Source: Nitrospirota bacterium (GTDB taxonomy: Bacteria > Nitrospirota > Thermodesulfovibrionia > Thermodesulfovibrionales > JdFR-88). Taken from it: a DNA stretch of 32,000 nt. The notes under the pieces were generated by a model, which saw only the letters and a list, made by a program, of their open reading frames with translations, did not search any database and was not told the DNA's origin. The translations under genes and the position numbers were made by a program. Below are positions 1 to 15,181 of the stretch, one piece after another. Every line of letters starts with the position of its first letter. Positions within the stretch are counted from its first letter, which is position 1. Location of the stretch: the NCBI GenBank assembly GCA_021813405.1, contig JAKAKS010000033.1:12995-44994 (forward strand), written 5' to 3'.

Positions 1-961
1 TAACTATCAGCCTGAACACGTGGGACTTCCTGGCGCCCATCGCCTTAAGAAGCCCAAGTTCCCTCTGCCTTTCGTTTACTATCATATAGAAGGCAAACCC
101 TATCATCAGCAGCGCCATTACCCACAGCACTGCGCTTATTGCAAATATTCCTTTCAACAGGCCGCTAAGCTGGGCACGAACGGTTGTTATCACCTTGTCC
201 GAGGAGATGGCCTTCACTCCCTGGCCGTCTGTCGCGTAATTTATTTTCAGCGCTACCCTTTCAGGGCTGTACCCCTGCTTTACTTTCACAAGAACGGCCG
301 AGATCTGGCCCTTATCAAGCTTCAGGGGACGTATTGCTTTTTGAGCGGAATCCGCTGCCATCTTGTATGCGGAATCCATCGTCATGAAAACTGTATTATC
401 AAAGTAGTTCATGCCCGTGCGCGCCATGGTGCCTGCCACTGTAAAGGGGCTGCCGTAAAAGGGGAGGGTGTCTCCTGTAATGACCGGCACATCCCGGCCA
501 GTCAGAATCTGCCCCGTCTTCATCGAGCCGGCCAGTCCTTTTGCCAGCCATGGCGTAATGGTGAAATCCGTAGCAGGGTCGAACGCGACCAGGAATACGG
601 GCACACTGTAGCAGCAACTGAAGGTGGTTGGTTTAATGAATATCTGCGGAGAAGCCGTAAGTACGCCCTCTGTCTTTCTGACTGCATTCAGCACGGAGCT
701 GTTCATGAAGAAGCTTTCAGGCTGCCCGGAAATCAGGGCGGATTTGGCCTCCTGCACGCTGTTTTTGGGCACCACTATTACGTCTGCCCCAAGCCTGTAT
801 GTGCCTACCCGCAATGCGTTATGCATGCTTGAGATGAATAACGTGGCCGAAAAAAGAGTGCCGGTTACGACTGTAATAGCCAAAAGCAAAAGAACGCTCC
901 GGACGGGTTTTCTTCTTAAATTCCGTTCCGCCAGCGAAATGATTCTCAATCTGGTTGACAT
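1..961 (-). CDS. ABC transporter permease, FtsX/MacB-like (C-terminus runs off the left window edge)
   Basis: My own minus-strand translation from the ATG at 961-959 gives MSTRLRIISLAERNLRRKPVRSVLLLLAITVVTGTLFSATLF (N-terminal TM helix). A roughly 200-aa extracytoplasmic domain follows, then GIFAISAVLWVMALLMIGFAFYMIVNERQRELGLLKAMGARKSHVFRLIV, which is typical of the start of an FtsX domain. The frame has no stop before position 1, so the ORF track omits it. Confidence 0.8.
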   Translation of the reverse strand, partial: MSTRLRIISLAERNLRRKPVRSVLLLLAITVVTGTLFSATLFISSMHNALRVGTYRLGADVIVVPKNSVQEAKSALISGQPESFFMNSSVLNAVRKTEGVLTASPQIFIKPTTFSCCYSVPVFLVAFDPATDFTITPWLAKGLAGSMKTGQILTGRDVPVITGDTLPFYGSPFTVAGTMARTGMNYFDNTVFMTMDSAYKMAADSAQKAIRPLKLDKGQISAVLVKVKQGYSPERVALKINYATDGQGVKAISSDKVITTVRAQLSGLLKGIFAISAVLWVMALLMIGFAFYMIVNERQRELGLLKAMGARKSHVFRLIV

Positions 962-1058: not shown

Positions 1059-2141
1059 TTATCCGCCTATCGGTTTGTGCTTCATACCCCAGCCAACGGT
1101 AATGCCGCAAAGATTCGGATGGCCCTCGGCCATTTTCACCACTATACCGTTTGCCTGATGGCAGCTTCCGCATGCCGAGATGTCCGCCACTACCTTGTGC
1201 GAATCGGCATTCATCACCATGAGGCGGCTGTCGTCCTGGTACGTCCTGGCCGGAATAAGTACCCATTTGCCGTCCTGGGTGAACGCTACGTCGTGCGGGT
1301 AGCGATGCTCAGGAAGCACGATGTGTTCTACCACCTTATTGGAATCGGTGTCTATGACCACAAGCTGGGATTTGTGGGTGGGCGGCTTGAGCCCCGGGTC
1401 GTACTCGTTTGGGGCTGATACCCACAGCTGGTTAGTGTGCGGTCTCAAATGGATCTGGTGGATGAACGTCATCTGAGGGTCGGTTATCTTTTTTACTACC
1501 TTTTTCGTTGTCCAGTCAAGCACGTAGATTGTGCCCGTGGGCATATCGGCCACATAGGCCACCTTGTTGTTATGGACCCATTGTATGCCGCATACGGCAG
1601 CGCCAACGGGGATATCGTCTACCAGCTTGGCTTTTTTGTAATTCCACTGGTAAATGTGCCCGTCTGCCATGTCCTCCAGGTACAGGCTGTTGTCTGGGCC
1701 TTTCATAACATCGCAGATCTTCTGGCCTATCTGCACCGGCTCGGAGTTCATGCCGGTCTTCAGGTTATGCACAACCATCCTGCCGTCCAATAACCCAACA
1801 TACAGTTTATCCCCTACTATCGCAGAGGCGTGGATGCCGCCGCCCCTCTTGATCTTCTCAAATGACATGCCGGCGATCTTGCCTTCCATCTCGCTGCCGG
1901 AATTTGTTATTGTGATCCTGTCGTTCTGGATGCTCACCGGCGATTTCATAGTGGCAAGGTTGATCATGGCTATGTGCCCGCCTTCACCGGCCACAAAGGC
2001 TATGCCGGTCAGCTTGGGCATATCGGCGGTTACATAGTGGTAGTCTATCCCGGTGTTGGCGGTGTTATCATCGGCGCTTGCCGTATAATAAACAGCCGTC
2101 GTCAACGCCAGCGCGATCACGGCGAGTAAAACCTTCTTCAT
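1059..2141 (-). CDS. Secreted YVTN-type beta-propeller repeat protein with a C-terminal CXXCH motif
   Basis: The 360-aa ORF starts with signal peptide MKKVLLAVIALALTTAVYYTASA. YVTN-like strand signatures recur: LYVGLLDGRMVVHNLKTG, GTIYVLDWTTKKVVKKI, QLVVIDTDSNKVVEHI and RLMVMNADSHKVVADI. The C-terminus reads ISACGSCHQANG, a CXXCH motif. An SD sequence (GGGAGGAAG) precedes the ATG. Confidence 0.8.
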   Translation of the reverse strand: MKKVLLAVIALALTTAVYYTASADDNTANTGIDYHYVTADMPKLTGIAFVAGEGGHIAMINLATMKSPVSIQNDRITITNSGSEMEGKIAGMSFEKIKRGGGIHASAIVGDKLYVGLLDGRMVVHNLKTGMNSEPVQIGQKICDVMKGPDNSLYLEDMADGHIYQWNYKKAKLVDDIPVGAAVCGIQWVHNNKVAYVADMPTGTIYVLDWTTKKVVKKITDPQMTFIHQIHLRPHTNQLWVSAPNEYDPGLKPPTHKSQLVVIDTDSNKVVEHIVLPEHRYPHDVAFTQDGKWVLIPARTYQDDSRLMVMNADSHKVVADISACGSCHQANGIVVKMAEGHPNLCGITVGWGMKHKPIGG

Positions 2142-2342: not shown

Positions 2343-2369
2343 TAAAAAGAGGGGGCGGAAGCCCCCTCT
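2343..2369 (-). terminator. Rho-independent terminator downstream of the extended YeeE reading frame
   Basis: The minus strand reads GAGGGGGC-TTCC-GCCCCCTC followed by TTTTTAT. This is an 8-bp GC-rich stem with a tetraloop and a U-tract, about 25 nt after the stop at 2397-2399. Confidence 0.7.
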
Positions 2370-2396
2370 TTCGATTGCGGAAGGTTTTCAGTCCCT

Positions 2397-3473
2397 CATA
2401 GGTTTTATAAACCTGAAATAGACCATCGTCCAGTTGCCAAGCACAATGAAGATAGTGGAGACGATGCTTGATACAGCCAAGGTCGACACACCGGTCAACC
2501 CATGCCCGATGTTTCAGCCGCCTGCTACGGAGGCGCCAAACCCCATGAGGAGGCCGCCTCCGAATACTATTGCCAGGTCCTTTGCCGGCGGGGCGTTCAG
2601 CTTGAATTCCTTGAGGCCTTTCGAGCTGATGTATGCGCCTATCGGGACTGCCAGGATGTATATCGCGCTCCAGGTTGCAGTTATGTTGCCGAACGAGAAC
2701 ATCGGCCATGACGAATGGCTGCTGCCATTTAGCACCGCGTTGGCGAACTCGCCAAGCGGACCGGTAAATGAAATCCCCCTGGGATAACCGCCGAACACGC
2801 CGGAAGCCCACCATCCCGCGGTTGCAACTATGCCTATCAAGACACCGGCTATGGACCATTTATATCCCTTTGCCGGGCCTTTCCGGAAGGGTTTTCCCTT
2901 AAGAACGTAGATGCCCGCAATGACGGCAATTACCCCGATTAATATCCACTTGGTGGTGTCGCCTCCCCCGAAAAGGCCGTATAAGGTCAGCGCATTGCCG
3001 CTTGCGTCGTTCACCGTGTAGTGTTTCATGGCCAGATAGACCGGTTTCAATACCCCGCTGGTTGTCATGATTATCCCCATGGCGAACGCCAGTGTGGCAA
3101 GCAGGGCCGATATCAGCCCTTCGCCCACTCGGTACAGTATGCCGCTGCCGCAGCCGCTGGCAAGGACCATGCCCAGGCCGAATATATATCCGCCCACTAT
3201 GTTTGCCACGGGCGCAAAAGACTGCCTTGCAAGGGTGAAAGGACCATACTGGTCCGACCCGAGCCAGTGCATATCTTCCAGGAAATTTGCCCCTACCATG
3301 GTTATGACCAGCGCAATCAGATAGGCCCTGAAAAGGGTGACATCGTTAATGAAGATGATGTCCCTGAACGCCGTGTTCATGCAAAACCTTCCACGTTGCA
3401 ACGCAAAGCCGATTGCCAGCCCTATCACAATGGCCGAAACAGCTACTGTCCATGTGCCAGGCGAAATGCCCAT
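2397..3473 (-). CDS. yeeE: YeeE/YedE family sulfur (thiosulfate) transport protein, predicted selenoprotein with an in-frame UGA at 2514-2516
   Basis: The family motifs QRGRFCMNTAFRD, GGYIFGLGMVLASGCGSGILYRVGEGLI and LLMGFGASVAGG[TGA]NIGHGLTG are present. The TGA falls where the family has its third invariant Cys. Reading through adds 39 codons (a hydrophobic last TM helix) up to the TGA at 2397-2399. The 358-codon total matches the family length, and AGGAGG precedes the ATG at 3473. Confidence 0.75.
2480..2501 (-). promoter_or_regulatory. Candidate bacterial SECIS hairpin downstream of the in-frame UGA
   Basis: The minus-strand RNA reads UGA, then AACAUCGGGCAU (12 nt), then GGGUUGAC [CGGUGU] GUCGACCU. 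The stem has 8 bp (6 Watson-Crick, 2 G-U) and the 6-nt apical loop contains GGU. Confidence 0.5.
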
Positions 3474-3567
3474 CGCTGCCTCCTCTTTTTAGTATCCCGT
3501 ATGCGTGGGGACCGAAGTGTTTCAATAATAAATTCATAAGGCCTTAAATATCAATGGGGGTTGTCCG

Positions 3568-4362
3568 TCATTCTCCTATCTTGGGGATTATACCCCGGTC
3601 TATAACAATCCGGTACATGCGTCTGAAGAAAAGGAGTGAAAGCGCAAGGTAAACGGCATTAAGCGCCGTGGCATCCAGAAGCTCACGGGCGGGGAAACTG
3701 GCCCCGTTTATCACTGCCCGCATCCCTTCAAACGCATGTGATGCCGGGATAAACGCGGCAACCGCGCGGAGAAACCCCGGCAGGACAGAGACGGGATAAA
3801 ACACGGCTGAGAATGGCAGAAATACAAACCCGAGCGCCCAGGCCAGGATCTCGGCCTCAAGGCCGTATCTTAGAATAAGGGCGGTCGTAAATATCCCGAT
3901 AGCCCATCCCATTGCGGTGAGATTCAAAACCAGCGGCAGCAGGGAGGCCCCAAGTTTCAGGATGCTGAAGGAATAGAGAGCCCAGCCCAGCACGGACAGC
4001 AGGGCAAACGCTGCGGCCACCTTTATAAAACTCATCACGATCAGGCCAAGGACATATTCGGCCATGGTCACCGGCGTTACGAACACGTTAATCAGGTTCC
4101 TGGACCACATGTCTTCAAGAAAAGAAACCGAGATCCCCTGTTCGGCCCTGAACAGGACATCCCACAATATGAGCGCGCCTATGAAATAGGATACGAACTT
4201 CGGCATGTTCTGGCCGGATGTCCTGCGAAGGTAAACCGTCAGGAACCCCCATAAAAGCAGGTCCATGGTGGGCCAGTATACAACTTCCATAAGCCGTGCC
4301 ATGCTTCTTTTGTAAAGATAAAGCTGTCTGAGCGCAACGGCCGCAACGTGGCTTGCTTTCAT
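3568..4362 (-). CDS. ABC-2 type transporter permease
   Basis: The ORF has six hydrophobic spans and an ABC-2 membrane-domain pattern: MKASHVAAVALRQLYLYKRSMARLMEVVYWP ... FIPASHAFEGMR. I chose the ATG at 4362 because it forms an ATGA overlap with the ATPase stop. The longer track ORF has an implausible G/R-rich N-terminus. Confidence 0.85.
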   Translation of the reverse strand: MKASHVAAVALRQLYLYKRSMARLMEVVYWPTMDLLLWGFLTVYLRRTSGQNMPKFVSYFIGALILWDVLFRAEQGISVSFLEDMWSRNLINVFVTPVTMAEYVLGLIVMSFIKVAAAFALLSVLGWALYSFSILKLGASLLPLVLNLTAMGWAIGIFTTALILRYGLEAEILAWALGFVFLPFSAVFYPVSVLPGFLRAVAAFIPASHAFEGMRAVINGASFPARELLDATALNAVYLALSLLFFRRMYRIVIDRGIIPKIGE

Positions 4363-5090
4363 TCGCCTTCTCCTAGCGCCTTGAAGAAAAGCTCTTCCAG
4401 GTTTTTTGCGCCGTAGCTGCCCAGAAGGTCTGCCGAGCGGCCCTGCATCAGCACCTTTCCCTCCTTCATGAAAAGCACCCTGTCCGATACCTCCTGCATC
4501 TCCCAAAGGTTATGGGACGTATAGATGACGGACATGCCTCTTTCGGAGCAGAGCGATTTCAGCATATGCCGCGTCTTCCTGGCAATCTCCGGGTCCAGCC
4601 CGGCGGTGGGCTCATCCAGAAGCAATATCTCCGGGCTGTTTATCATGGCCTTGGCCAGCGCCAGCCTCATCATCTGGCCCGATGAAAGCGTCCTTGATGG
4701 TTTGTTCTTAAGTTTTTCGAGCCCGAACATGCCAAGCGTCTCATCGCATCTTGCGGCCCTGTCCTTGATCCCGTACATCAGTGCATAGACCATCATGTTT
4801 TCACGCGGCGTAAGTGTTAGTGGCAGCGAGACATAGCTGGAGGCGAAATTCATGCGCCTTAAAATACTTGCCCTTGTTTGCGCGGAAAGCCTTGTGCCGA
4901 ATGCCTCCACCCAGCCTGAAGACGGGGAGATAAGCCCAAGAATAGTGTGGATTAAAGTAGTCTTGCCGGCGCCGTTTGGCCCAAGCACGCCAAGTATCTC
5001 TCCTTTTTCAAGCGCAAGGCTTACGTCTGAAAGGGCGTAAACCCCAGGTTCAAACGATTTCGATATCCCTGTAACCTTTAAAATCTTCAT
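4359..5090 (-). CDS. ABC transporter ATP-binding protein (ABC-2/DrrA-like)
   Basis: Walker A (GPNGAGKTT), signature (LSSGQ) and Walker B (LLLDEPTAGLD) are present, along with an H-loop (SHNL). The start is either the ATG at 5090 (MKILKV) or the GTG at 5105; neither has a clear SD. Confidence 0.9.
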   Translation of the reverse strand: MKILKVTGISKSFEPGVYALSDVSLALEKGEILGVLGPNGAGKTTLIHTILGLISPSSGWVEAFGTRLSAQTRASILRRMNFASSYVSLPLTLTPRENMMVYALMYGIKDRAARCDETLGMFGLEKLKNKPSRTLSSGQMMRLALAKAMINSPEILLLDEPTAGLDPEIARKTRHMLKSLCSERGMSVIYTSHNLWEMQEVSDRVLFMKEGKVLMQGRSADLLGSYGAKNLEELFFKALGEGE

Positions 5091-5222
5091 AAAGCAATCT
5101 ATCACTGCAAACCGGGTGCGGTCAATGGAACTTATTGAAAATTGCCTGCTGCAAACCCGCTTGCGCCCATTTTCATGCTAGAATTTTTCTAATCTGAATG
5201 AACAGCAGGATAAGGAGGCCAC

Positions 5223-6445: not shown

Positions 6446-7156
6446 TTATTTATCCGTGTGGCAATTTCTGCAGATTATGCTCTCGAACAGGGGATTTTTA
6501 TTGCCCGAATTCCTTAGAAATTGAACCCCGCTGCCATAATTGTTTCCGTTGTGCGGGTTGTGGCAAGTGGCGCACTGCAATGTGCCACTGAAAAGGGGAT
6601 AAGTATCTGTGTTGTAGAGTGCGCCTATGAAAAAATTTGCCAAACCGTTGAAGCCGGGTCCGTTGCCAATGTACACCCGATCTCCCGCAGGATCATTACC
6701 GATGGGTATCAGGCTCCTGAACGGCGTGACAATTCCAAGGTTTACAACCTGTCCTACTGAAAAATTAAACGGGTGTTCGTTAAAGTGGCTGGTGATATTA
6801 GGGCCGGTGTCTCCGTCATGGCAGCCCAGGCAATACATTGAGCCCATGGCCGGGTTGGGTGGGTCGTCCGCGGCTTTCTGGCCGGTTGGAATGCCTATGT
6901 TGTTGGCGGGCATGGAATCATAAGAGTAAGAAATATTATAAGTGTAGTTGGATATGCCGTCATCCCAAAGCATATGCTGATTAATTAGGTTGGAGCTGGC
7001 TATGTGCGGGTGATGGCAAAAAACGCACAACTGCCGCGTTTCGGGCAGTTTGCTTATGGAGTTCATATCGTGCTTTGATTGCATCAGGCCCATTGCAAGC
7101 GCATGGTGCACGGCTGCGGCTGCAAGGGCCAGAAACAGGATGAGAATTTTCTTCAT
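6446..7156 (-). CDS. Periplasmic tetraheme c-type cytochrome
   Basis: The signal peptide is MKKILILFLALAAAAVHHALA. Four CXXCH motifs are present: CVFCH, CLGCH, CATCH and CRNCH, two of them in the form CxxCHxPH. I chose the ATG at 7156 (AGGGGA SD) over the track start at 7195. Confidence 0.85.
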   Translation of the reverse strand: MKKILILFLALAAAAVHHALAMGLMQSKHDMNSISKLPETRQLCVFCHHPHIASSNLINQHMLWDDGISNYTYNISYSYDSMPANNIGIPTGQKAADDPPNPAMGSMYCLGCHDGDTGPNITSHFNEHPFNFSVGQVVNLGIVTPFRSLIPIGNDPAGDRVYIGNGPGFNGLANFFIGALYNTDTYPLFSGTLQCATCHNPHNGNNYGSGVQFLRNSGNKNPLFESIICRNCHTDK

Positions 7157-7240
7157 CGGTTTCCCCTGTTTTTGAGGGTCTGAATGCCGTGGCATTTTTA
7201 ACCGTTGTCTTAAGACGGGGAATGGTGCTTGCCTGATTCC

Positions 7241-7453: not shown

Positions 7454-10400
7454 TCACTTTCCCTTTACCCTGAATGTATAAAAAATCACAGGCAGTACGA
7501 ACAGCACCAGCGGAAACTGGACCACCAGCCCGGAGATTATGGCTATTGCCAGGGGTTTCAGCATCGCGGCCCCCTGGCCGATGCCGGTTGCAAGCGGCAT
7601 TAAGGCCAGGATGGCGGCAAAAGTAGTCATGGCGATGGGCCGCATCCTGTTTTTCCCCGCGGTTATGAAGGCCTCTTTTCTGTTCATCCCTGCGGGCATT
7701 TCGTAATATTCAGACACGTAAAATATGGCTACCTCGGTTGCTATGCCGATAATCATCGTCATCCCCATCATGGCGGAGATATTTAATTCCGTGCCTGTGA
7801 TAAAAAGGCCCGCAAACACTCCCATGACGGCCAGAAGGCTGGTGATAAGTATTGCCCCGGCAACCAGAAAGCTCTCGTACAGATAAAGAAGCAGCAGGAA
7901 GATTAGCGCAACGGCGGCGGCAAACACGGCCATGAGCCCGGCAAAGGCTATCTTCTGCTGTTTGTAGAGCCCGCCAAGGCTGTAGTAAACCCCGGCAGGG
8001 AAAAGCCCCGGCCGCGCAAGCGCCTTCTTTACGTCACGGATAACAGAGCCCATGTCCCTGCCGGTTATGCGTCCGGTAACGGCGGCCATTCTTTTTAGGT
8101 TGTCCCGTGTAATCTCGGGCTGCCCGCTTATGGCAGTTAATGTGGCAATCCTGCCAAGCGGGAACAGGTGGCCGTCAGGGGCGCGCAACTGCAACTGGGC
8201 AAGCTGCCCGACGGTTGCCCTGTATTTTCCTGGAATCCAGACTCTTACGCCAACCATCTTGGGTTCCTTCTCAACCTGCGTGGTGACAATGCCGCTTAAC
8301 ATCGCGTCCAGGTCCTTTGTGACGGAATCCGGGTCCACCCCTTCCAGGGCGGCTTTCACCCTGTCCACCTTTATATCCAGGGCATCACCGGCAAGTACTA
8401 TGCCGGGGTCCACATCCACCACGCCGGGTATCTTGCTTATCATGTCCGCTATTTTAGGGGCAAGAGTATCCAGCACCTTCCCGTTATCCGAATAGATTTT
8501 TATCTCGATTGGCTGGGGGACGCCGGTAAAATCCCCTATCATGTCTTCAAGGAGCTGGGCCATTTCAATATGCAGGCCCGGTACGGATTTTTCCACGCGC
8601 TTGCGGATGTCATTCATAACCTCGCCAATTGGCTTTCTGGGGAAGGGCTTCAGGCGTATGAAGAAATCGCCCTGGTATGCCTCCGTAACACCGCCGCCAA
8701 GCTGAAGCCCGGTGCGCCTGGAATAGGTCTGCACTTCAGGTGTTGTACGGAGGATGTCTTCCACTTGTCTTAGCAGGCGGTCCGTCTCGGCCAGTGATGT
8801 GCCCGGCTCCGCCAGATAGTCCAGGATGAATCCCCCTTCGTCCATCCTGGGCATGAACCCGGAGCCAAGGTGCTTGTAGCACAGCCATCCACCGATAAGA
8901 AGTGCGGCCACAGGTATCAATACCAGCATGGGGCGGCCAAGCAGGCGGGACATGGTATTTTCGTATTTTTTGTGCGCCTTTTCCGTTACAAAACCGCCTT
9001 CCTTCTGGTCCGCATCCTTTTCACTTAGCAGATGGTCCGCAAGCAGCGGGACGGCAAGCCATGCTACAAAATATGAGATAAAAAGGCTGGCCGCCATTGT
9101 CAGGGAAAGCGCCTTGAAAAAAGCGCCGGTAACGCCGGAGAGGAAAGCCAGCGGCGTGAATATTACTATTGTGGACGCGGAGGACCCCATCAGAGGCCTT
9201 GTAAACTCCCTTGCCGCAAACATGATTTTTTCATGGTGTTCGCCGGGCGCCATACTGCCGCCGCCGCGGAGCCGCCGCACGATGTGTTCCAGCATAACGA
9301 TAGTGTCATCAATTATCAGGCCCACGGCTGCGGCCATGCCGCCAAGCGTCATCATGTTGAAGCTCTGGTGCATTATGTACAAAAGCAGCACCGAGGCCGC
9401 AAGCACCCCCGGCACAGTGATAATGGCTATAAGTGTTATCTTTACGTTCTTAAGGAAGATAAAAAGTATAACGGCCGCAAGCGCAACGCCTATCAGTATG
9501 GCGTCCCTTACACTGCCGGCCGAGGCGTTTATCAGCTGGCTCTGGTCGTACCAGTTTGCTATCTTTACCCCCGCTGGTATCTGGTTTTTAAACCCGGCCA
9601 GTTTCGCTTTCAGGTCTTTTGCTATGCGCACGGTATTTCCGCCGCGCTGCTGGTAAACATTCAGCAGCACGGCGTCGTGGCCGTCCGCTGTTACCCTTGT
9701 CCATTGCGGCACCGTTGCGCGGCTTACGGCGGCCACGTCTTCCAGCAGTACCGGCCCGTTTGCCCCGGAGCGCAAAACCGTGCTGCGGATTTCATCAAGT
9801 CCGGTAAAGCTGGTGTCGGACATTACAAGATAAAGCTTGTAATGGTCCTCCAGGCGGCCCACCGCGGTTATGACGTTTGCTGCAGAGAGGGATTTGGCCA
9901 CGTCCGAAAGCGTAAGTCCGTAAGAGGCAAGTTTTGCCGGGTCCACCGTCACCCGGTATTCCTCGGTGGTGCCGCCCTGTACCTGCACCCTTGCCACGCC
10001 GTTTACCGTGGAAAGAAGCGGGCGGAGCTGATAGAAGGCGAAATCGTGCAACGCGGTAAGGGAAAGATTGTCCGATGTCAGGCTGTAGGCCAGCACCGGG
10101 TCGATTGTGGGGTCCATGCGTTTTACCGAAAAGGTGGTACTCGAAGGCATGGATGGCATCACCTGGTTTATCGCCGATTCCACCTGAAGCAGCGATTCCG
10201 CCATATTCCGGCCCCATCCGAAATCCACCCTCACTTCCGCGCTGCCGCGGCTTGTGGTGGAACGGACGCTTACAACCCCTGGAACAGCCCTTACCGCCTG
10301 CTCCACGGGCAATGTGACCTCGATTGCCATCCGGGTGGCGGGGCGGTCCCCGGCATCCAGCTCGACGGCAATCCTTGGGAAGCTAACGTTTGGAAGCAGG

Positions 10401-10504
10401 GCAACCGGCAGCTTCACACTGCTTGCGATGCCTCCAAGCATCAGCACGGCCAGCAAAAAGAGTATTGAACGGCGGTGGTACTGAACCCATCCGGTGAAAG
10501 TCAT
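7454..10504 (-). CDS. RND efflux transporter permease subunit (AcrB/CzcA superfamily)
   Basis: The ORF is 1016 aa with a 12-TM, two-large-loop architecture. The TM4 motif is GLIIDDTIVMLEH. Its ATG forms an ATGA overlap with the adaptor gene stop at 10501-10504. Confidence 0.95.
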   Translation of the reverse strand: MTFTGWVQYHRRSILFLLAVLMLGGIASSVKLPVALLPNVSFPRIAVELDAGDRPATRMAIEVTLPVEQAVRAVPGVVSVRSTTSRGSAEVRVDFGWGRNMAESLLQVESAINQVMPSMPSSTTFSVKRMDPTIDPVLAYSLTSDNLSLTALHDFAFYQLRPLLSTVNGVARVQVQGGTTEEYRVTVDPAKLASYGLTLSDVAKSLSAANVITAVGRLEDHYKLYLVMSDTSFTGLDEIRSTVLRSGANGPVLLEDVAAVSRATVPQWTRVTADGHDAVLLNVYQQRGGNTVRIAKDLKAKLAGFKNQIPAGVKIANWYDQSQLINASAGSVRDAILIGVALAAVILFIFLKNVKITLIAIITVPGVLAASVLLLYIMHQSFNMMTLGGMAAAVGLIIDDTIVMLEHIVRRLRGGGSMAPGEHHEKIMFAAREFTRPLMGSSASTIVIFTPLAFLSGVTGAFFKALSLTMAASLFISYFVAWLAVPLLADHLLSEKDADQKEGGFVTEKAHKKYENTMSRLLGRPMLVLIPVAALLIGGWLCYKHLGSGFMPRMDEGGFILDYLAEPGTSLAETDRLLRQVEDILRTTPEVQTYSRRTGLQLGGGVTEAYQGDFFIRLKPFPRKPIGEVMNDIRKRVEKSVPGLHIEMAQLLEDMIGDFTGVPQPIEIKIYSDNGKVLDTLAPKIADMISKIPGVVDVDPGIVLAGDALDIKVDRVKAALEGVDPDSVTKDLDAMLSGIVTTQVEKEPKMVGVRVWIPGKYRATVGQLAQLQLRAPDGHLFPLGRIATLTAISGQPEITRDNLKRMAAVTGRITGRDMGSVIRDVKKALARPGLFPAGVYYSLGGLYKQQKIAFAGLMAVFAAAVALIFLLLLYLYESFLVAGAILITSLLAVMGVFAGLFITGTELNISAMMGMTMIIGIATEVAIFYVSEYYEMPAGMNRKEAFITAGKNRMRPIAMTTFAAILALMPLATGIGQGAAMLKPLAIAIISGLVVQFPLVLFVLPVIFYTFRVKGK

Positions 10505-11604
10505 TTTGTATGCGGCACCTTTACGGCCATCCCGTCTTTAAGTTCGTAGTTGCCAACTACCACAACCTCATCACCCGGTTTCAGGCCCCCGCCGGATACC
10601 AGCGCCAGATTGCCGCTTTCAATGCCTCTTTGAACTATGTGCTTGACAGCTTTTCCATCGCTTACTGTATAAAGCACGTATTTCCCGCCCTCCGGCAGCA
10701 CTGCGCTCCTGGGCACAACCATCCCGTAAGAGGAGGCCATCTGTATCTTGCCCATGACATATTCGCCAAGAAGAAACCCTGCGGATTGCCCGGCCCCTGC
10801 GGAAGGCAACGCAACAAAAACATCCACAAGGCGCGTGGCGGAGTTCACCGCGCGGGAAATCTTCCTTACCCGGCCTGTTATTCCGGTTGGCAGCTGCTGG
10901 TTTACCGGCGAAAGCAGTACGGGCTGCCCTTGAACCAGCCGTCCGGCGGCGTTAGGCTCCATCCCAAGGCGTACCTCCAGGCGGTTTTGAGCTATTGTGC
11001 CAACCAGCGGCTTGCCGTCGGCAACTATAGCGCCGTCCTGAACGTTTACATAGCTTACCAGGCCGCCGGCATCTGCCCGTATTACCCGCATGCCGTCCAC
11101 GCCCATCTTTTGGAAGTTTTTCAGTTGCAATGATGCCTTCCTGAAGTCCTCCTGCGCCTTAAGCATCTGGGTGTTGGTTGCAAGCTTAAGATCGAACAGC
11201 TGCTTTACATGCGCCAGGTTCTGTTTTGAAATATCATAGGAGTTTTCCGCCTGGCCCAGTTGAAGAAGAGTATCGGGGCTGGGTTCCACCTGAATAAGCG
11301 GCTCGCCCCTGGCCACCTTCTGCCCGGCGCTCACCATTACCTGCCCCACCCTTATCTCATATGGCACGGAGGCAACCTGCACCGCGTCCGGCGCGGGGAC
11401 AACTTCGCCAAATGCCGTACCGGCGGCTGAAATCCTCTGCGTTTTTACCGGGGCAACTTCAACGCTTGCCACCGGGCCGCCCGCCTCCGGCGCCGGGCTG
11501 TCCGCGCTTGCCTTTTGCCCCCTGCCTTCAATAAGCTTGTAGCCGCCAAAAGCAAGGCAAACGGCAAAAACCGTAATAAGGACGCCCCTCCAGGGGAATT
11601 TCAT
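10501..11604 (-). CDS. RND efflux periplasmic adaptor (membrane fusion protein, HlyD-like)
   Basis: There is an N-terminal anchor (MKFPWRGVLITVFAVCLAFGG), a coiled-coil segment (LQLGQAENSYDISKQNLAHVKQLFDLKLATNTQMLKAQEDFRKASLQLKNFQ) and beta-barrel C-terminal domains. AGGAGG lies 9 nt before the ATG at 11604. Confidence 0.9.
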   Translation of the reverse strand: MKFPWRGVLITVFAVCLAFGGYKLIEGRGQKASADSPAPEAGGPVASVEVAPVKTQRISAAGTAFGEVVPAPDAVQVASVPYEIRVGQVMVSAGQKVARGEPLIQVEPSPDTLLQLGQAENSYDISKQNLAHVKQLFDLKLATNTQMLKAQEDFRKASLQLKNFQKMGVDGMRVIRADAGGLVSYVNVQDGAIVADGKPLVGTIAQNRLEVRLGMEPNAAGRLVQGQPVLLSPVNQQLPTGITGRVRKISRAVNSATRLVDVFVALPSAGAGQSAGFLLGEYVMGKIQMASSYGMVVPRSAVLPEGGKYVLYTVSDGKAVKHIVQRGIESGNLALVSGGGLKPGDEVVVVGNYELKDGMAVKVPHTK

Positions 11605-11617
11605 CAGCGCATACCTC

Positions 11618-12985
11618 CTATTGCAAATACTCTCCGGCGCTGATCTCCAGCGCCACATGCAGTTCCGCCAGCGTCAGCCTGAGCTTCAGCGCGTCCAGCC
11701 TCCTGGTGGCCAGCCTGTTTACCTCGTTGTAATAACTGAGAGCGTCTATGTTGCCCTCAAGAAAACCGTTATACGACACGGATACAAGCTTCCCCAGCGC
11801 CGCCACGGACTTGCCGGCCGCGCTTATCTGGGCCTTAACCGCTTTAATGTTTGCCAGTATGGCCGCTGCATCCGCCCGCGCCTGGAATATCCTGTTCATA
11901 TATTCGTCATACAGCATTTGCCTTGTGGCTTTCTCTATGGCTATATGGCCCTGGTTACGATCGAAAAAAGGCAGTTTAATGGACAAGGAAAAGCCCGTTG
12001 ATATAACGTTGGTATTGTCCCTGGCATGGGAGAACCCGATGCCTATGCTTGGGAACTGTGCGCGCACGGCCTCCCTTAACGCTGCATCCTGGCTCTGGTA
12101 ACCCTGTTTCAAGGCAAGCAGGTCCAGCCTCCTGTTTTCAATCCCTTTCATTATGCCGTTCAGCGAAGGAAGGGTTTTCAAGGCCGGAAACGCCATGTTC
12201 TTTTTCAGCGGGATATAACTTTTGGGGGGAAACCCAAGCACAAGGTTAAGCCTTAGCCGTTCCTGTTCCAGTTTCTGGCTGGTGCTGAGGGCTGTGGAAT
12301 GCGCGCTTCTAAGCGTTGATTCCACCGCATCCAGATCAACAATCGTCATATTGCCTTCGTCAACTGCTTTTTTTATGGCTTGCAGGTTCTGAAGCAGAGT
12401 GTTCTCCTCATTTTTCGCAATCTTCAGCTGCTGCTCCAGCATCATTACCCGATAAACTTCCAGCCTTGCGGACTGGGCCACCTGCCATTCCTGCCAGACT
12501 ATATCAAGGCTGACGGATTCCTTATTGGCCTGCGCCGCGTCAATTTTTGGCCCGCGTGTAAGCAGGGATTTTATGATGCTCCAGTCCAGCCCCAGCCCGT
12601 AGGCGTTCACTGTGCCCTGGTCGCTGCCGCCGCTAGGCACATCCAGGCTGTAACTGAATGCCGGGTTGGGAAGGATGCCAGCCTGCAAAAGCTGGGCATT
12701 GGCAATACCAAGCCGGTCCCTTTCGGCGCGAAGCTGCGGATTTGCGATAACGGCTATAATTGCCGCGTCCTGGGCGGAGATGCCTTTTGCAAAATCTATA
12801 TTTCGCGGCTTGAGGACGGGATGCTTTATCTGCCTGGCCTTTATCCGCAATGATTGAATATCAGGGGCCGCAAGCCTGCCGGAGATGGCCTGCCGGTTAA
12901 TGGGCTTCGGCTGATATATTGCGCAGCCGCAAAGCATGGCAAGCGGCACTATGCATAACAGCTTTTTTATCATGGGAGATCGCAT
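11618..12985 (-). CDS. Outer-membrane efflux protein (TolC/OprM family lipoprotein)
   Basis: A lipobox is present (LAMLCGC), and the two-repeat OEP helical pattern runs throughout. The gene order OMF-MFP-RND is as in czcCBA. The start is the ATG at 12985 or at 12973. Confidence 0.9.
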   Translation of the reverse strand: MRSPMIKKLLCIVPLAMLCGCAIYQPKPINRQAISGRLAAPDIQSLRIKARQIKHPVLKPRNIDFAKGISAQDAAIIAVIANPQLRAERDRLGIANAQLLQAGILPNPAFSYSLDVPSGGSDQGTVNAYGLGLDWSIIKSLLTRGPKIDAAQANKESVSLDIVWQEWQVAQSARLEVYRVMMLEQQLKIAKNEENTLLQNLQAIKKAVDEGNMTIVDLDAVESTLRSAHSTALSTSQKLEQERLRLNLVLGFPPKSYIPLKKNMAFPALKTLPSLNGIMKGIENRRLDLLALKQGYQSQDAALREAVRAQFPSIGIGFSHARDNTNVISTGFSLSIKLPFFDRNQGHIAIEKATRQMLYDEYMNRIFQARADAAAILANIKAVKAQISAAGKSVAALGKLVSVSYNGFLEGNIDALSYYNEVNRLATRRLDALKLRLTLAELHVALEISAGEYLQ

Positions 12986-13095
12986 TTAAAAAATCTTAAA
13001 CAATGGGCATCTTGTTGTCCATGCCTGCCCGCCTCAAATTTTATTGCAATTTTTTTAATATAAGTTCCGGGAATTGCATGGACATTGCGCAAACA

Positions 13096-14526
13096 TTACA
13101 AATCTGCAATGTTGTCCGTTTTGGGATTGGCCGGAATGTAGACAGTAAAAACGGAACCTTCGCCCGGCGCGCTGGAGACCTCCACGCGTCCTTTGTGCGC
13201 CAGAATGATTGCCTTTACAAGGCTCAGGCCAAGCCCAAGCCCCCTTTGTGAGCGGCTTTTGTCCCCGCGGTACAGCCGGTCCCATATTTTCGGGAGTTCC
13301 TGCTGCTGAATGCCGGCGCCTGTATCTGTTATTTGGATAACGGCGCTTTGATTTTCCCTGGATGTTTGGATTTCCACGGACCCTCCGCAATCCGTGTACT
13401 TGACTGCATTGTCCAGCAGGTTAGCGATGGCCTGCTGAATCCTGTTTTTATCCGCAAGCACTTGCATATTTCCCGTGAATGAGGCGCGGATGGCCACATT
13501 CTTTTCTTCCGCCACATAGCTGTAAAGGTCTGTCACCTCATTTATCAGGGCCGACAAGTCCACATCCTGCAAATTAAGCAGCATTGCGCCTGTTTCAGCC
13601 TCCGAGATGTCCATCACAGTGTTAAGCATTGTCAGTATGCGGTCCGCCTCCTCTATGCTGTCGGCCAGCGCGCTTTTCAGCGTGTCCGGGCTGGCTTCAG
13701 AGCGAAGCGCCATCTCAGCGCCGGCGCGAATTCTTGTGATTGGGGTGCGCAGGTCATGGGCCACATTGTCCAGGCCCTCCCTCATACCTTTTATAAGCTT
13801 TTCGATTTTTTCCAGCATGGTGTTAAAAAGCCTGCTTAGTTCCTGAAGCTCATCCTTGCTATCTCCCACAGGCACCCTGGCGTTTATCTCCCCAGTGCCG
13901 ATTATCTGGCGCGTTGCGTTTATCAGGTAGCGTATGGGCCTGAGGGCCCGGAACGTAAGCAGCATCCCCCCGGCAAAACCGGTTATGAATACAGGAATCA
14001 GTATTTTCAGGAATATCGCGCGGAACCGTGCGATCAACTCCTGGCTGTTAACAGTAAGTTTGCCAACCTGCAGGATTAAACCCGGTGTGATGGGTTTTGA
14101 CAATATCTCATACGTGTTCTTCACGCCATTTGAAGAAATAGAAGACCATGGCCCCTTGTTTTCCGTTTGGCCGGTGTCCAGCCGCTCTAAATCCGGCGCC
14201 GGCCATTGCCGGGGGATGGACAGAAAAACCGTCCCCTTTTTCGCATCCGTGAGGCGGACAAAAAAAAGGTCCTGGCCGGTCGAGTCCTTGAACCTTATTT
14301 CGGACAGGGCGCGCTCCAGCCTGCTGCTTCCTCCCATGCGGAAATCGGCTACGTAATCTTCCATTTCGGACTGGATGAGCTTGCGGTCGTTCTGCCTGAA
14401 GGAGAATTTAAGGGAAAAGAATGTAACAAAGAACAAAATCAGGGAACTGGCAATAAATATGGCCGAGTACCAGAAGGCCAGCTGAAAGCCTATTGTTCTG
14501 CTGGATGCCCTAAGCCCTGAAAGCAT
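13096..14526 (-). CDS. Sensor histidine kinase (two TM helices, HAMP, HisKA, HATPase)
   Basis: The H-box is HDLRTPITRIRAG, the N-box is NLLDNAVKYT, G1 is DTGAGI and G2 is GLGLGLSLV. The ORF overlaps the response-regulator gene by 17 nt. Confidence 0.9.
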   Translation of the reverse strand: MLSGLRASSRTIGFQLAFWYSAIFIASSLILFFVTFFSLKFSFRQNDRKLIQSEMEDYVADFRMGGSSRLERALSEIRFKDSTGQDLFFVRLTDAKKGTVFLSIPRQWPAPDLERLDTGQTENKGPWSSISSNGVKNTYEILSKPITPGLILQVGKLTVNSQELIARFRAIFLKILIPVFITGFAGGMLLTFRALRPIRYLINATRQIIGTGEINARVPVGDSKDELQELSRLFNTMLEKIEKLIKGMREGLDNVAHDLRTPITRIRAGAEMALRSEASPDTLKSALADSIEEADRILTMLNTVMDISEAETGAMLLNLQDVDLSALINEVTDLYSYVAEEKNVAIRASFTGNMQVLADKNRIQQAIANLLDNAVKYTDCGGSVEIQTSRENQSAVIQITDTGAGIQQQELPKIWDRLYRGDKSRSQRGLGLGLSLVKAIILAHKGRVEVSSAPGEGSVFTVYIPANPKTDNIADL

Positions 14527-15181
14527 AACCGATCCCCCTCATCGTCTGGATCAGCTTCTGGTCAAAATCCTTTTCGATCTTGTTTCTCAGCCGGCAAACC
14601 AGCACGTCCACCACATTGGTCTGCGGATCAAAATTATATCCCCATATATGCTCAAGTATCATGGCCTTTGAAACCACCTTGCCCGCATTGCGTAAAAAGT
14701 ATTCAAGGAGGGCAAATTCCCGATACTGCAAATCGATTTTTTTGCCGCCCCTGAATACCTCGCGCGTGAGGAGGTCTATCGAAATGTCCTGGGCGGCCAG
14801 GCGGGTGGTTTCGGCCATGCCTGATGATCTTCGGATCAGCGCCTGCAAACGCGCCAGGAGTTCGGAGAAGGAGAACGGTTTTGTAAGGTAATCGTCGCCG
14901 CCTGCGCGCAGCCCGCGCACCCTGTCGTCCACGGAATGCCTTGCGCTGAGGATTATCACCGGGGTGTTGATCTTCTGGCGGCGAATCTCTTCGATCACAG
15001 CCAGCCCGTCCAGCCGCGGCAGCATGATATCAACTATGGCTGAATCATAAACCCCCGTCTGCAATGCGCGCAGGCCGTCCTCTCCGTTGTCCTCACAATC
15101 CACCGCAAAGCCGGCCTGCTTCATTCCGCTGGATATGAAAGAGGCTATTTTTTTGTCATCCTCTATGATCAGAATGCGCAT
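14510..15181 (-). CDS. OmpR/PhoB-family response regulator (CusR/CopR-like winged helix)
   Basis: The receiver domain reads MRILIIEDD ... VDIMLPRLDG. The wHTH segment ILEHIWGYNFDPQTNVVDVLVCRLRNKIE resembles the heavy-metal response-regulator subfamily. Confidence 0.95.
   Translation of the reverse strand: MRILIIEDDKKIASFISSGMKQAGFAVDCEDNGEDGLRALQTGVYDSAIVDIMLPRLDGLAVIEEIRRQKINTPVIILSARHSVDDRVRGLRAGGDDYLTKPFSFSELLARLQALIRRSSGMAETTRLAAQDISIDLLTREVFRGGKKIDLQYREFALLEYFLRNAGKVVSKAMILEHIWGYNFDPQTNVVDVLVCRLRNKIEKDFDQKLIQTMRGIGYAFRA

Follow-up and report, generated by a model that had tools for sequence, protein, structure and literature searches.

An in-frame UGA predicted to encode selenocysteine at the thiosulfate-contacting position of a YeeE/TsuA-type transporter from a Nitrospirota bacterium

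A gene for a membrane transporter of the YeeE/YedE family, located in a 32,000-nucleotide stretch of a Nitrospirota genome (contig JAKAKS010000033.1, positions 12,995 to 44,994; hereafter the window), raises the question of whether an in-frame TGA is the end of the gene or a selenocysteine (Sec) codon within it. Specifically, the minus-strand open reading frame (ORF) starts with an ATG at 3473 and meets its first in-frame TGA at 2516–2514, inside a family signature (LLMGFGASVAGG[TGA]NIGHGLTG), just as described in an earlier reading made from the letters without database searches (the sequence-only reading). Termination at this codon would leave a product of 319 residues. That earlier reading took the TGA to replace the third invariant Cys of the family and to encode Sec, and from the data presented here we infer that UGA320 very probably does encode Sec in a YeeE/TsuA-type transporter.

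Reading on in frame past 2516–2514 yielded 41 sense codons (NIGHGLTGVSTLAVSSIVSTIFIVLGNWTMVYFRFIKPMRD) followed by a second TGA at 2390–2388, resulting in a product of 361 residues (362 codons when counting the stop). The extension that the sequence-only reading had postulated proved to be real coding sequence, but its dimensions had to be corrected: 39 codons and a product of 358 residues had been counted, and the second stop had been placed at 2397–2399, positions that correspond to the Met codon of ...KPMRD. The intrinsic terminator expected past the end of the gene was indeed present, at 2366–2350. As judged from the sequence, the 41-codon extension should supply the last transmembrane helix. 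The coordinates of all features of the gene are collected in Table 1.

With the TGA read through (here as Cys), the product matched the PF04143 (Sulf_transp) profile from end to end (profile positions 1–310 of 310, residues 27–349, E = 8e-67, 226.3 bits against a cut-off of 27), which agrees with the proposed YeeE/YedE assignment and was obtained only with read-through. The best match among solved structures (phmmer) was YeeE of Spirochaeta thermophila (StYeeE, 6LEO; E = 3e-42, residues 14–357), and in this nearly full-length alignment the AGG[U]NIGH of the window protein fell on AGGC293NIGH, the motif being otherwise identical. The three pathway positions of StYeeE (C22, C91 and C293) all have counterparts in the window protein: the two other Cys motifs, previously noted as intact, contain C31 and C108, and the third position is the UGA in place of a Cys. 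The C-terminal GNWTM motif is conserved as well. In StYeeE the three Cys stand in line, approximately 7 Å apart, at the waist of an hourglass-shaped protein, with C293 lying in the periplasmic indentation and contacting bound thiosulfate (site I); C293A, and changes at the matching C302 of the Escherichia coli protein, abolish function (PMC7449682). The window protein thus resembles the TsuA/YeeE proteins (StYeeE 6LEO and 8J4C; E. coli YeeE) over nearly its whole length, while differing from them in the predicted Sec in place of C293.

The sequence-only reading had proposed an alignment with homologues in order to look for Cys/Sec pairs at the UGA column. Among the 120 best matches from a search of 5.8 billion proteins, this column was occupied by Cys in 108, and the remaining 12 were protein clusters (57–98% identical) that ended exactly at ...GG; no other residue was observed. 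At five loci of such clusters, the DNA reads TGA at this point and continues with 41 conserved codons. A degenerate DNA probe (GG-TGA-xx-GH-x-LTG, 17 codons, GNW) run on species-representative genomes matched once in the window and in 52 genomes. All 52 contained a YeeE gene with the in-frame TGA, followed by 38–44 open and conserved codons and then by TAA, TAG or TGA, so that the conservation of the extension among orthologues, which had been left to be checked, was observed throughout. Moreover, the internal codon was always TGA and never TAA or TAG, while the terminal stops of the same genes used all three. The carriers were mostly Nitrospirota of the class Thermodesulfovibrionia, including a metagenome-assembled genome (MAG) of Thermodesulfovibrio yellowstonii and Dissulfurispiraceae, and were further found in two Synergistales/Acetomicrobium genomes, one Chloroflexota MAG and one unclassified bacterium.

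The extension is under purifying selection. The ratio of nonsynonymous to synonymous differences per site (pN/pS) amounted to 0.18 in the 38 codons after the UGA versus 0.45 in the 38 codons before it, and comparison of the window gene with individual orthologues downstream of the UGA gave pS values of 0.5–0.7 with pN values of 0.04–0.08. Furthermore, the 357-residue proteins of locus L036 (Sec form) and locus L059 (P0004, Cys form) share 93% identity, with 83.5% identity of their DNA, a pair that, from its sequences, looks like a recent Cys/Sec switch.

These data bear on the explanation that the TGA is a genuine stop, so that the gene would be a pseudogene or would encode a 319-residue protein without the last helix, with the downstream frame a decaying remnant. 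Public gene calls do end at the TGA: cluster P0001 is a 319-residue 'YeeE/YedE family protein' and 11 other clusters likewise stop at ...GG, part of the extension being called as a separate ORF of 30–33 residues in some assemblies (L003 11030–11122, L004 11021–11122). No Sec machinery was found in the window either. However, the low pN/pS, the frame kept open in 52 species and the exclusive use of TGA argue against termination, as do the Pfam domain and the 6LEO alignment, which require the extension, and the essential Cys and C-terminal region that would be lost (PMC7449682). We consider a genuine stop extremely unlikely. A sequencing or assembly error, or a genetic code that reads UGA as sense, has nothing in its favour apart from this one codon and would be of negligible likelihood: the same TGA appeared in independent assemblies from many studies, and TGA terminates 10 of the 22 window genes, including those at 4359, 10501, 27700 and 28425. 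This use of TGA as an ordinary stop indicates that the genetic code is standard and that, as previously argued, any recoding is site-specific. Pseudogene, code reassignment and assembly error were rejected on the conservation data, the independent assemblies and the use of TGA as an ordinary stop.

A search for a bacterial Sec insertion sequence (SECIS), also suggested by the sequence-only reading, revealed a hairpin of the form GGGUUGAC-CGGUGU-GUCGACCU that begins 13 nt past the UGA, its apical loop being separated from the UGA by 20 nt. Its features agree with the published bacterial SECIS model in all four constraints (PMC13188914). The fold energy was –10.3 kcal/mol (z = –2.6), with 3 of 200 shuffled sequences folding equally well. 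Over 53 distinct Sec-form sequences the helix was 86.8% paired, compared with at most 40% when the partner column was slid, and compensatory changes were found in the stem (GC/CG in 15 sequences, CG/UA in 16). Within the TVGH-type subfamily, the two loci with an AGY-Ser codon after the loop (L011 and L039) also had TTG, not CTG, as the Leu codon that takes part in the pairing, which suggests independent covariation there.

Because the stem arms encode the conserved peptide L-T-G-V-S, resampling of synonymous codons was used as control. All six core pairs were present in 49 of the 53 Sec forms versus 1.4% of the synonymous resamples. In addition, the stem was broken in the Cys form L059 by two synonymous changes (CTG to CTA and GTG to GTT). 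A broad fold of 81 nt around the UGA gave no signal (z = –0.38), and no Rfam family covered the hairpin. The GGU-loop hairpin, correctly spaced from the UGA, is maintained by selection on synonymous sites.

The hairpin and the Cys/Sec pairing also bear on read-through without Sec, whether by insertion of a near-cognate Trp or Cys or by general leakiness, and on a variant in which the UGA chiefly switches between truncated and full-length protein depending on selenium. The inserted amino acid is predicted from sequence comparison, which leaves room for this explanation, and selenium limitation is expected to cause termination at Sec codons, as the switch variant would have it. On the other hand, all homologues without the TGA have Cys in this column, a classic Cys/Sec pairing, and the GGU-loop hairpin stands at the right spacing and is selected at synonymous sites. 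Moreover, Sec use is known from the lineages in which the TGA occurs: Peng et al. 2016 (Table S2) list Thermodesulfovibrio yellowstonii, T. thiophilus and species of Anaerobaculum (now Acetomicrobium) among the organisms that use Sec. Read-through without Sec appears very improbable, if slightly less so than a true stop.

Several observations weigh against a Sec-containing sulfur transporter. No selA, selB, selC or selD was found in the 32-kb window (ARAGORN; Pfam scans of 20 window genes), and ARAGORN detected no tRNA-Sec in the window or in 53 loci. In the literature we found no selenium incorporation experiment for a YeeE-family member. Of the hairpin controls, the three Cys forms that encode the LTG[VA]S peptide retained 1, 4 and 1 core pairs, a control of three sequences only, and in a minimum-free-energy test on synonymous resamples the real sequences could not be told from the controls, unlike in the specific-helix test, because Gly-rich GC codons fold anyway. 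With regard to the sulfur substrate, the nearest NCBIfam models, those of TsuA, remained below their cut-offs (NF052577, 229.6 versus 400 bits; NF041049, 144.2 versus 645), and the window gene differs from TsuA/YeeE in that no TsuB/YeeD (TusA-like) gene adjoins it in the window, where the intergenic gaps are too short to hold a further gene. A thiosulfate substrate is therefore an extrapolation.

A scan of the window for other in-frame TGA candidates revealed no second selenoprotein gene. Indirect support for Sec machinery comes from the Sec users listed above and from a 2026 review, which cites selC nested within selB in Nitrospirae. Taken together, the Cys/Sec column, the conserved TGA and extension, and the hairpin agree with the computational criteria for calling bacterial selenoproteins.

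A mechanism can be proposed in which the hairpin 20 nt downstream would recruit SelB with Sec-tRNA(Sec) at UGA320 for Sec to be inserted, after which the ribosome would continue for 41 codons, completing the C-terminal end, and stop just before the terminator. The product would be a nine-helix inner-membrane transporter for a reduced sulfur compound. As Sec320 would take the position of C293 in StYeeE, it would head a line of three chalcogen residues, Sec320-Cys108-Cys31, for which a spacing of approximately 7 Å is taken from the homologue structure. A selenolate would be ionised at neutral pH and would be both a better nucleophile and a better leaving group than a thiolate, so that Sec320 might capture and pass on substrate sulfur faster, and resist irreversible oxidation on the outward-facing side.

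Table 1. Features of the transporter gene and its surroundings (window coordinates).
Feature	Position	Strand	Basis
Full coding sequence, YeeE/TsuA-type transporter	2388..3473	minus	Translation; 361 residues with predicted Sec at residue 320, plus stop codon
Candidate sigma-70-like promoter (TTGATA, 18-nt spacer, TATTAT)	3525..3554	minus	Consensus scan, 10/12 matches; consensus match alone
Shine-Dalgarno AGAGGAGG	3479..3486	minus	Direct reading; 5 nt 5' of ATG
Cys31 codon TGC, motif QRGRFC31MNTAFRD	3381..3383	minus	6LEO alignment: StYeeE C22, cytoplasmic end of the Cys line
Cys108 codon TGC, motif LASGC108GSG	3150..3152	minus	6LEO alignment: StYeeE C91, central Cys
In-frame UGA, predicted Sec codon, residue 320	2514..2516	minus	6LEO alignment: StYeeE C293 / E. 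coli C302
Predicted bacterial SECIS hairpin, 8-bp stem GGGUUGAC/GUCGACCU, apical loop CGGUGU (2493-2488)	2480..2501	minus	Folding and covariation
41-codon extension past the UGA (NIGHGLTG...GNWTMVYFRFIKPMRD)	2391..2513	minus	Aligns with StYeeE residues 294-330
True stop, TGA	2388..2390	minus	Sequence; orthologues end here with TAA, TAG or TGA
Intrinsic terminator GGGGGC-UUCC-GCCCCC, then U run	2350..2366	minus	Terminator scan; ~21 nt past the true stop

Concerning the cargo, the sulfur gene contexts of relatives (see below) make it most likely that thiosulfate or sulfane sulfur would be imported, with Sec320 as the outward-facing capture residue. Alternatively, the protein could be a selenoprotein with a selenium or tellurium species as substrate, serving uptake or detoxification like a YedE/FdhT-like protein or an Ext-type selenite/tellurite system. 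YedE-type members of PF04143 have reportedly been tied to selenium metabolism (PMC5322559, PMC11097638), and an ExtJ homologue lies 3' of YeeE in related loci, ExtJ being named after a Geobacter selenite/tellurite reduction operon (PMC5877670). However, no role has been established for ExtJ itself (PMC5877670), and neither the window nor the window-type loci contain an ExtJ-like gene. The hidden Markov model scores also favour TsuA: 229.6 bits, as opposed to 68.1 (cut-off 350) and 37.8 (cut-off 200) for the YedE/FdhT models NF033796 and TIGR04112, whose matches were partial and weak (residues 12–136). From these scores, the window protein is a relative of TsuA rather than an equivalog. It has the Pfam superfamily and a tie to selenium biology in common with YedE/FdhT, but selenium is the proposed cargo there and a part of the protein in the window case.

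Sulfur-relay genes adjoining the relatives (TusA, DsrE/F/H, rhodanese) further argue against a selenium or tellurium substrate, which we regard as unlikely overall. Specifically, the Cys form P0014 is situated between rhodanese-DsrEFH-TusA genes and a Psr-like molybdoenzyme, and TusA and ThiF occur near P0004. The Synergistales Sec form of L009 is followed by three ORFs of approximately 118 residues (948–1952) that resemble DsrE, DsrF and DsrH, as assigned by eye. DsrE/F/H-like genes also stand upstream of YeeE in L011, L013, L026, L033 and L039 (two-Sec forms, see below), and one such DsrE/F/H-like neighbour matched PF02635 DsrE (E = 6e-5).

The window and about 10 window-type loci share their neighbours. 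Upstream is an ABC-2 exporter (4359–5105 and 3568–4362 in the window). Downstream lies a conserved gene (1059–2141, minus strand) for a secreted beta-propeller of 360 residues that carries a CGSCH haem-c motif near its C-terminus and weakly resembles cytochrome d1 and lactonase-type NosZ. Next to it comes a MacB/FtsX-type ABC system (1–960, minus strand; also in L001, L003, L015 and L058), with NosL and DUF4418 also present in L003 and L058. By their sequences, the beta-propeller/ABC set may be an assembly system for a periplasmic metal or sulfur centre.

Farther along, the window carries an ordinary resistance-nodulation-division (RND) efflux operon (7454–15181, minus strand) with an outer-membrane factor, an HlyD-type adaptor and an AcrB-type pump, which is adjoined by a two-component system (histidine kinase and OmpR-type regulator). 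Between the RND pump and a PEMT-like membrane protein, a 249-residue ORF (6446–7195, minus strand) gave two weak matches to multihaem cytochromes c (paired CXXCH, cytochrome c7), each below its Pfam cut-off.

The sequence-only reading had known of no description of Sec at this position, and it is at the level of the family that this novelty fails, because the family has figured among predicted selenoproteins from 2016 at the latest. The 'YeeE/YedE family' is among the catalogued bacterial selenoprotein families with 5 sequences from 5 organisms (Peng et al. 2016, ISME J, Suppl. Table S3), and two reviews list it with one Sec, the example WP_012471001.1 and the motif 'GUxSG' (PMC9312934, PMC13188914). 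The catalogued form and the window gene are alike in PF04143, in one predicted Sec and in being bioinformatic predictions from a Cys/Sec pair. However, GUxSG fits the second Cys motif (GCGSG or GCASG), whereas the window site reads GUNIG, so that, comparing by the published motif alone, the Sec position of the catalogued form may differ from that of the window gene. We take WP_012471001.1 to come from Geobacter lovleyi, an unconfirmed assumption from the accession range only. Among the species-representative genomes, no Geobacter or Trichlorobacter genome matched the third-Cys TGA probe. Two probes for a TGA at the second Cys in TsuA-like context found no match on metagenome contigs; the Cys version of the broader of them recovered 49 of 60 loci, which indicates that this probe is sound.

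Zhang & Gladyshev (2008) and Peng (2016) give, in main text and supplements, only the family name and counts, and the two reviews, among the papers on YeeE and selenocysteine, contained no link between Sec and the structural role of C293. Other predicted selenoproteins with Sec in or near a membrane transport pathway, none of them experimentally confirmed, are the mercuric transport protein, the E1-E2 cation ATPase, SaoP and the SO_0444 Cu/Zn efflux transporter (PMC13188914). The YeeE case is like them in this respect, but their folds are unrelated and their links are to metals or metalloids, whereas YeeE concerns a pathway for sulfur anions for which the structure of a homologue has been solved.

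Relatives of the window gene point to a second Sec position. In 29 of the 52 genomes (L006, L010, L013, L025, L049 and 24 further loci), a second in-frame TGA occurred at the first conserved Cys (StYeeE C22), in the context ...GFVLQRGRY[TGA]MN[ST]AFRDVIF; this second TGA is not present in the window. These genes form a subfamily of about 330 residues of the U-TVGH[AS] type, with a conserved N-terminal piece of approximately 31 residues upstream of the first TGA. Roughly 15 nt past that TGA an invariant AGAGACGUGAUCUUU can form a small hairpin with a CGUGA loop, the closing pair of which varies from C:G to U:A. Going by these sequence features, the U-TVGH subfamily would consist of two-Sec transporters.

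In 29 loci an ExtJ-like gene lies approximately 140 nt 3' of YeeE on the same strand (for example L036 7084–7408, L010 4770–5064 and L013 3360–3612), and the Cys-form loci L059 and L060 carry it as well. It encodes a small secreted protein ending in ...KKKK[AP][IV]EGC that matches NCBIfam NF040942 ExtJ ('selenite/tellurite reduction operon protein') with 63.6 bits against a cut-off of 52.5. The Lys-rich arm with its terminal Cys is reminiscent of SoxY, a sulfur carrier.

As a rule, only Cys residues that are chemically reactive are exchanged for Sec. In YeeE, Sec would have replaced pathway Cys repeatedly and at more than one position: at the third in 52 species, at the first and third in 29 genes, and possibly at the second, as in the GUxSG example. 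We tentatively raise the possibility, to which we give less than even weight, that the Cys form a covalent relay. If true, the supposedly 'hydrogen-bonding' Cys of YeeE/TsuA would form covalent chalcogen-chalcogen intermediates, a transmembrane relay of the persulfide or selenosulfide type. In the two-Sec forms, the ExtJ-like protein could then feed this relay from the periplasm via its C-terminal ...KKKKxxEGC arm.

To the selenoprotein catalogue, the analysis adds a Sec position, a SECIS, a taxonomic spread and two-Sec relatives for this family. For annotation, gene calls that stop at the UGA drop an essential residue and the C-terminal end in 12 protein clusters and 52 species genomes, and the capacity for sulfur transport in Thermodesulfovibrionia is therefore under-called. 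With regard to mechanism, the predicted Sec coincides with the single Cys that contacts thiosulfate in the one structure solved for this fold. The current model regards the three Cys as hydrogen-bond donors, and the natural Cys-to-Sec swaps argue for chemical reactivity.

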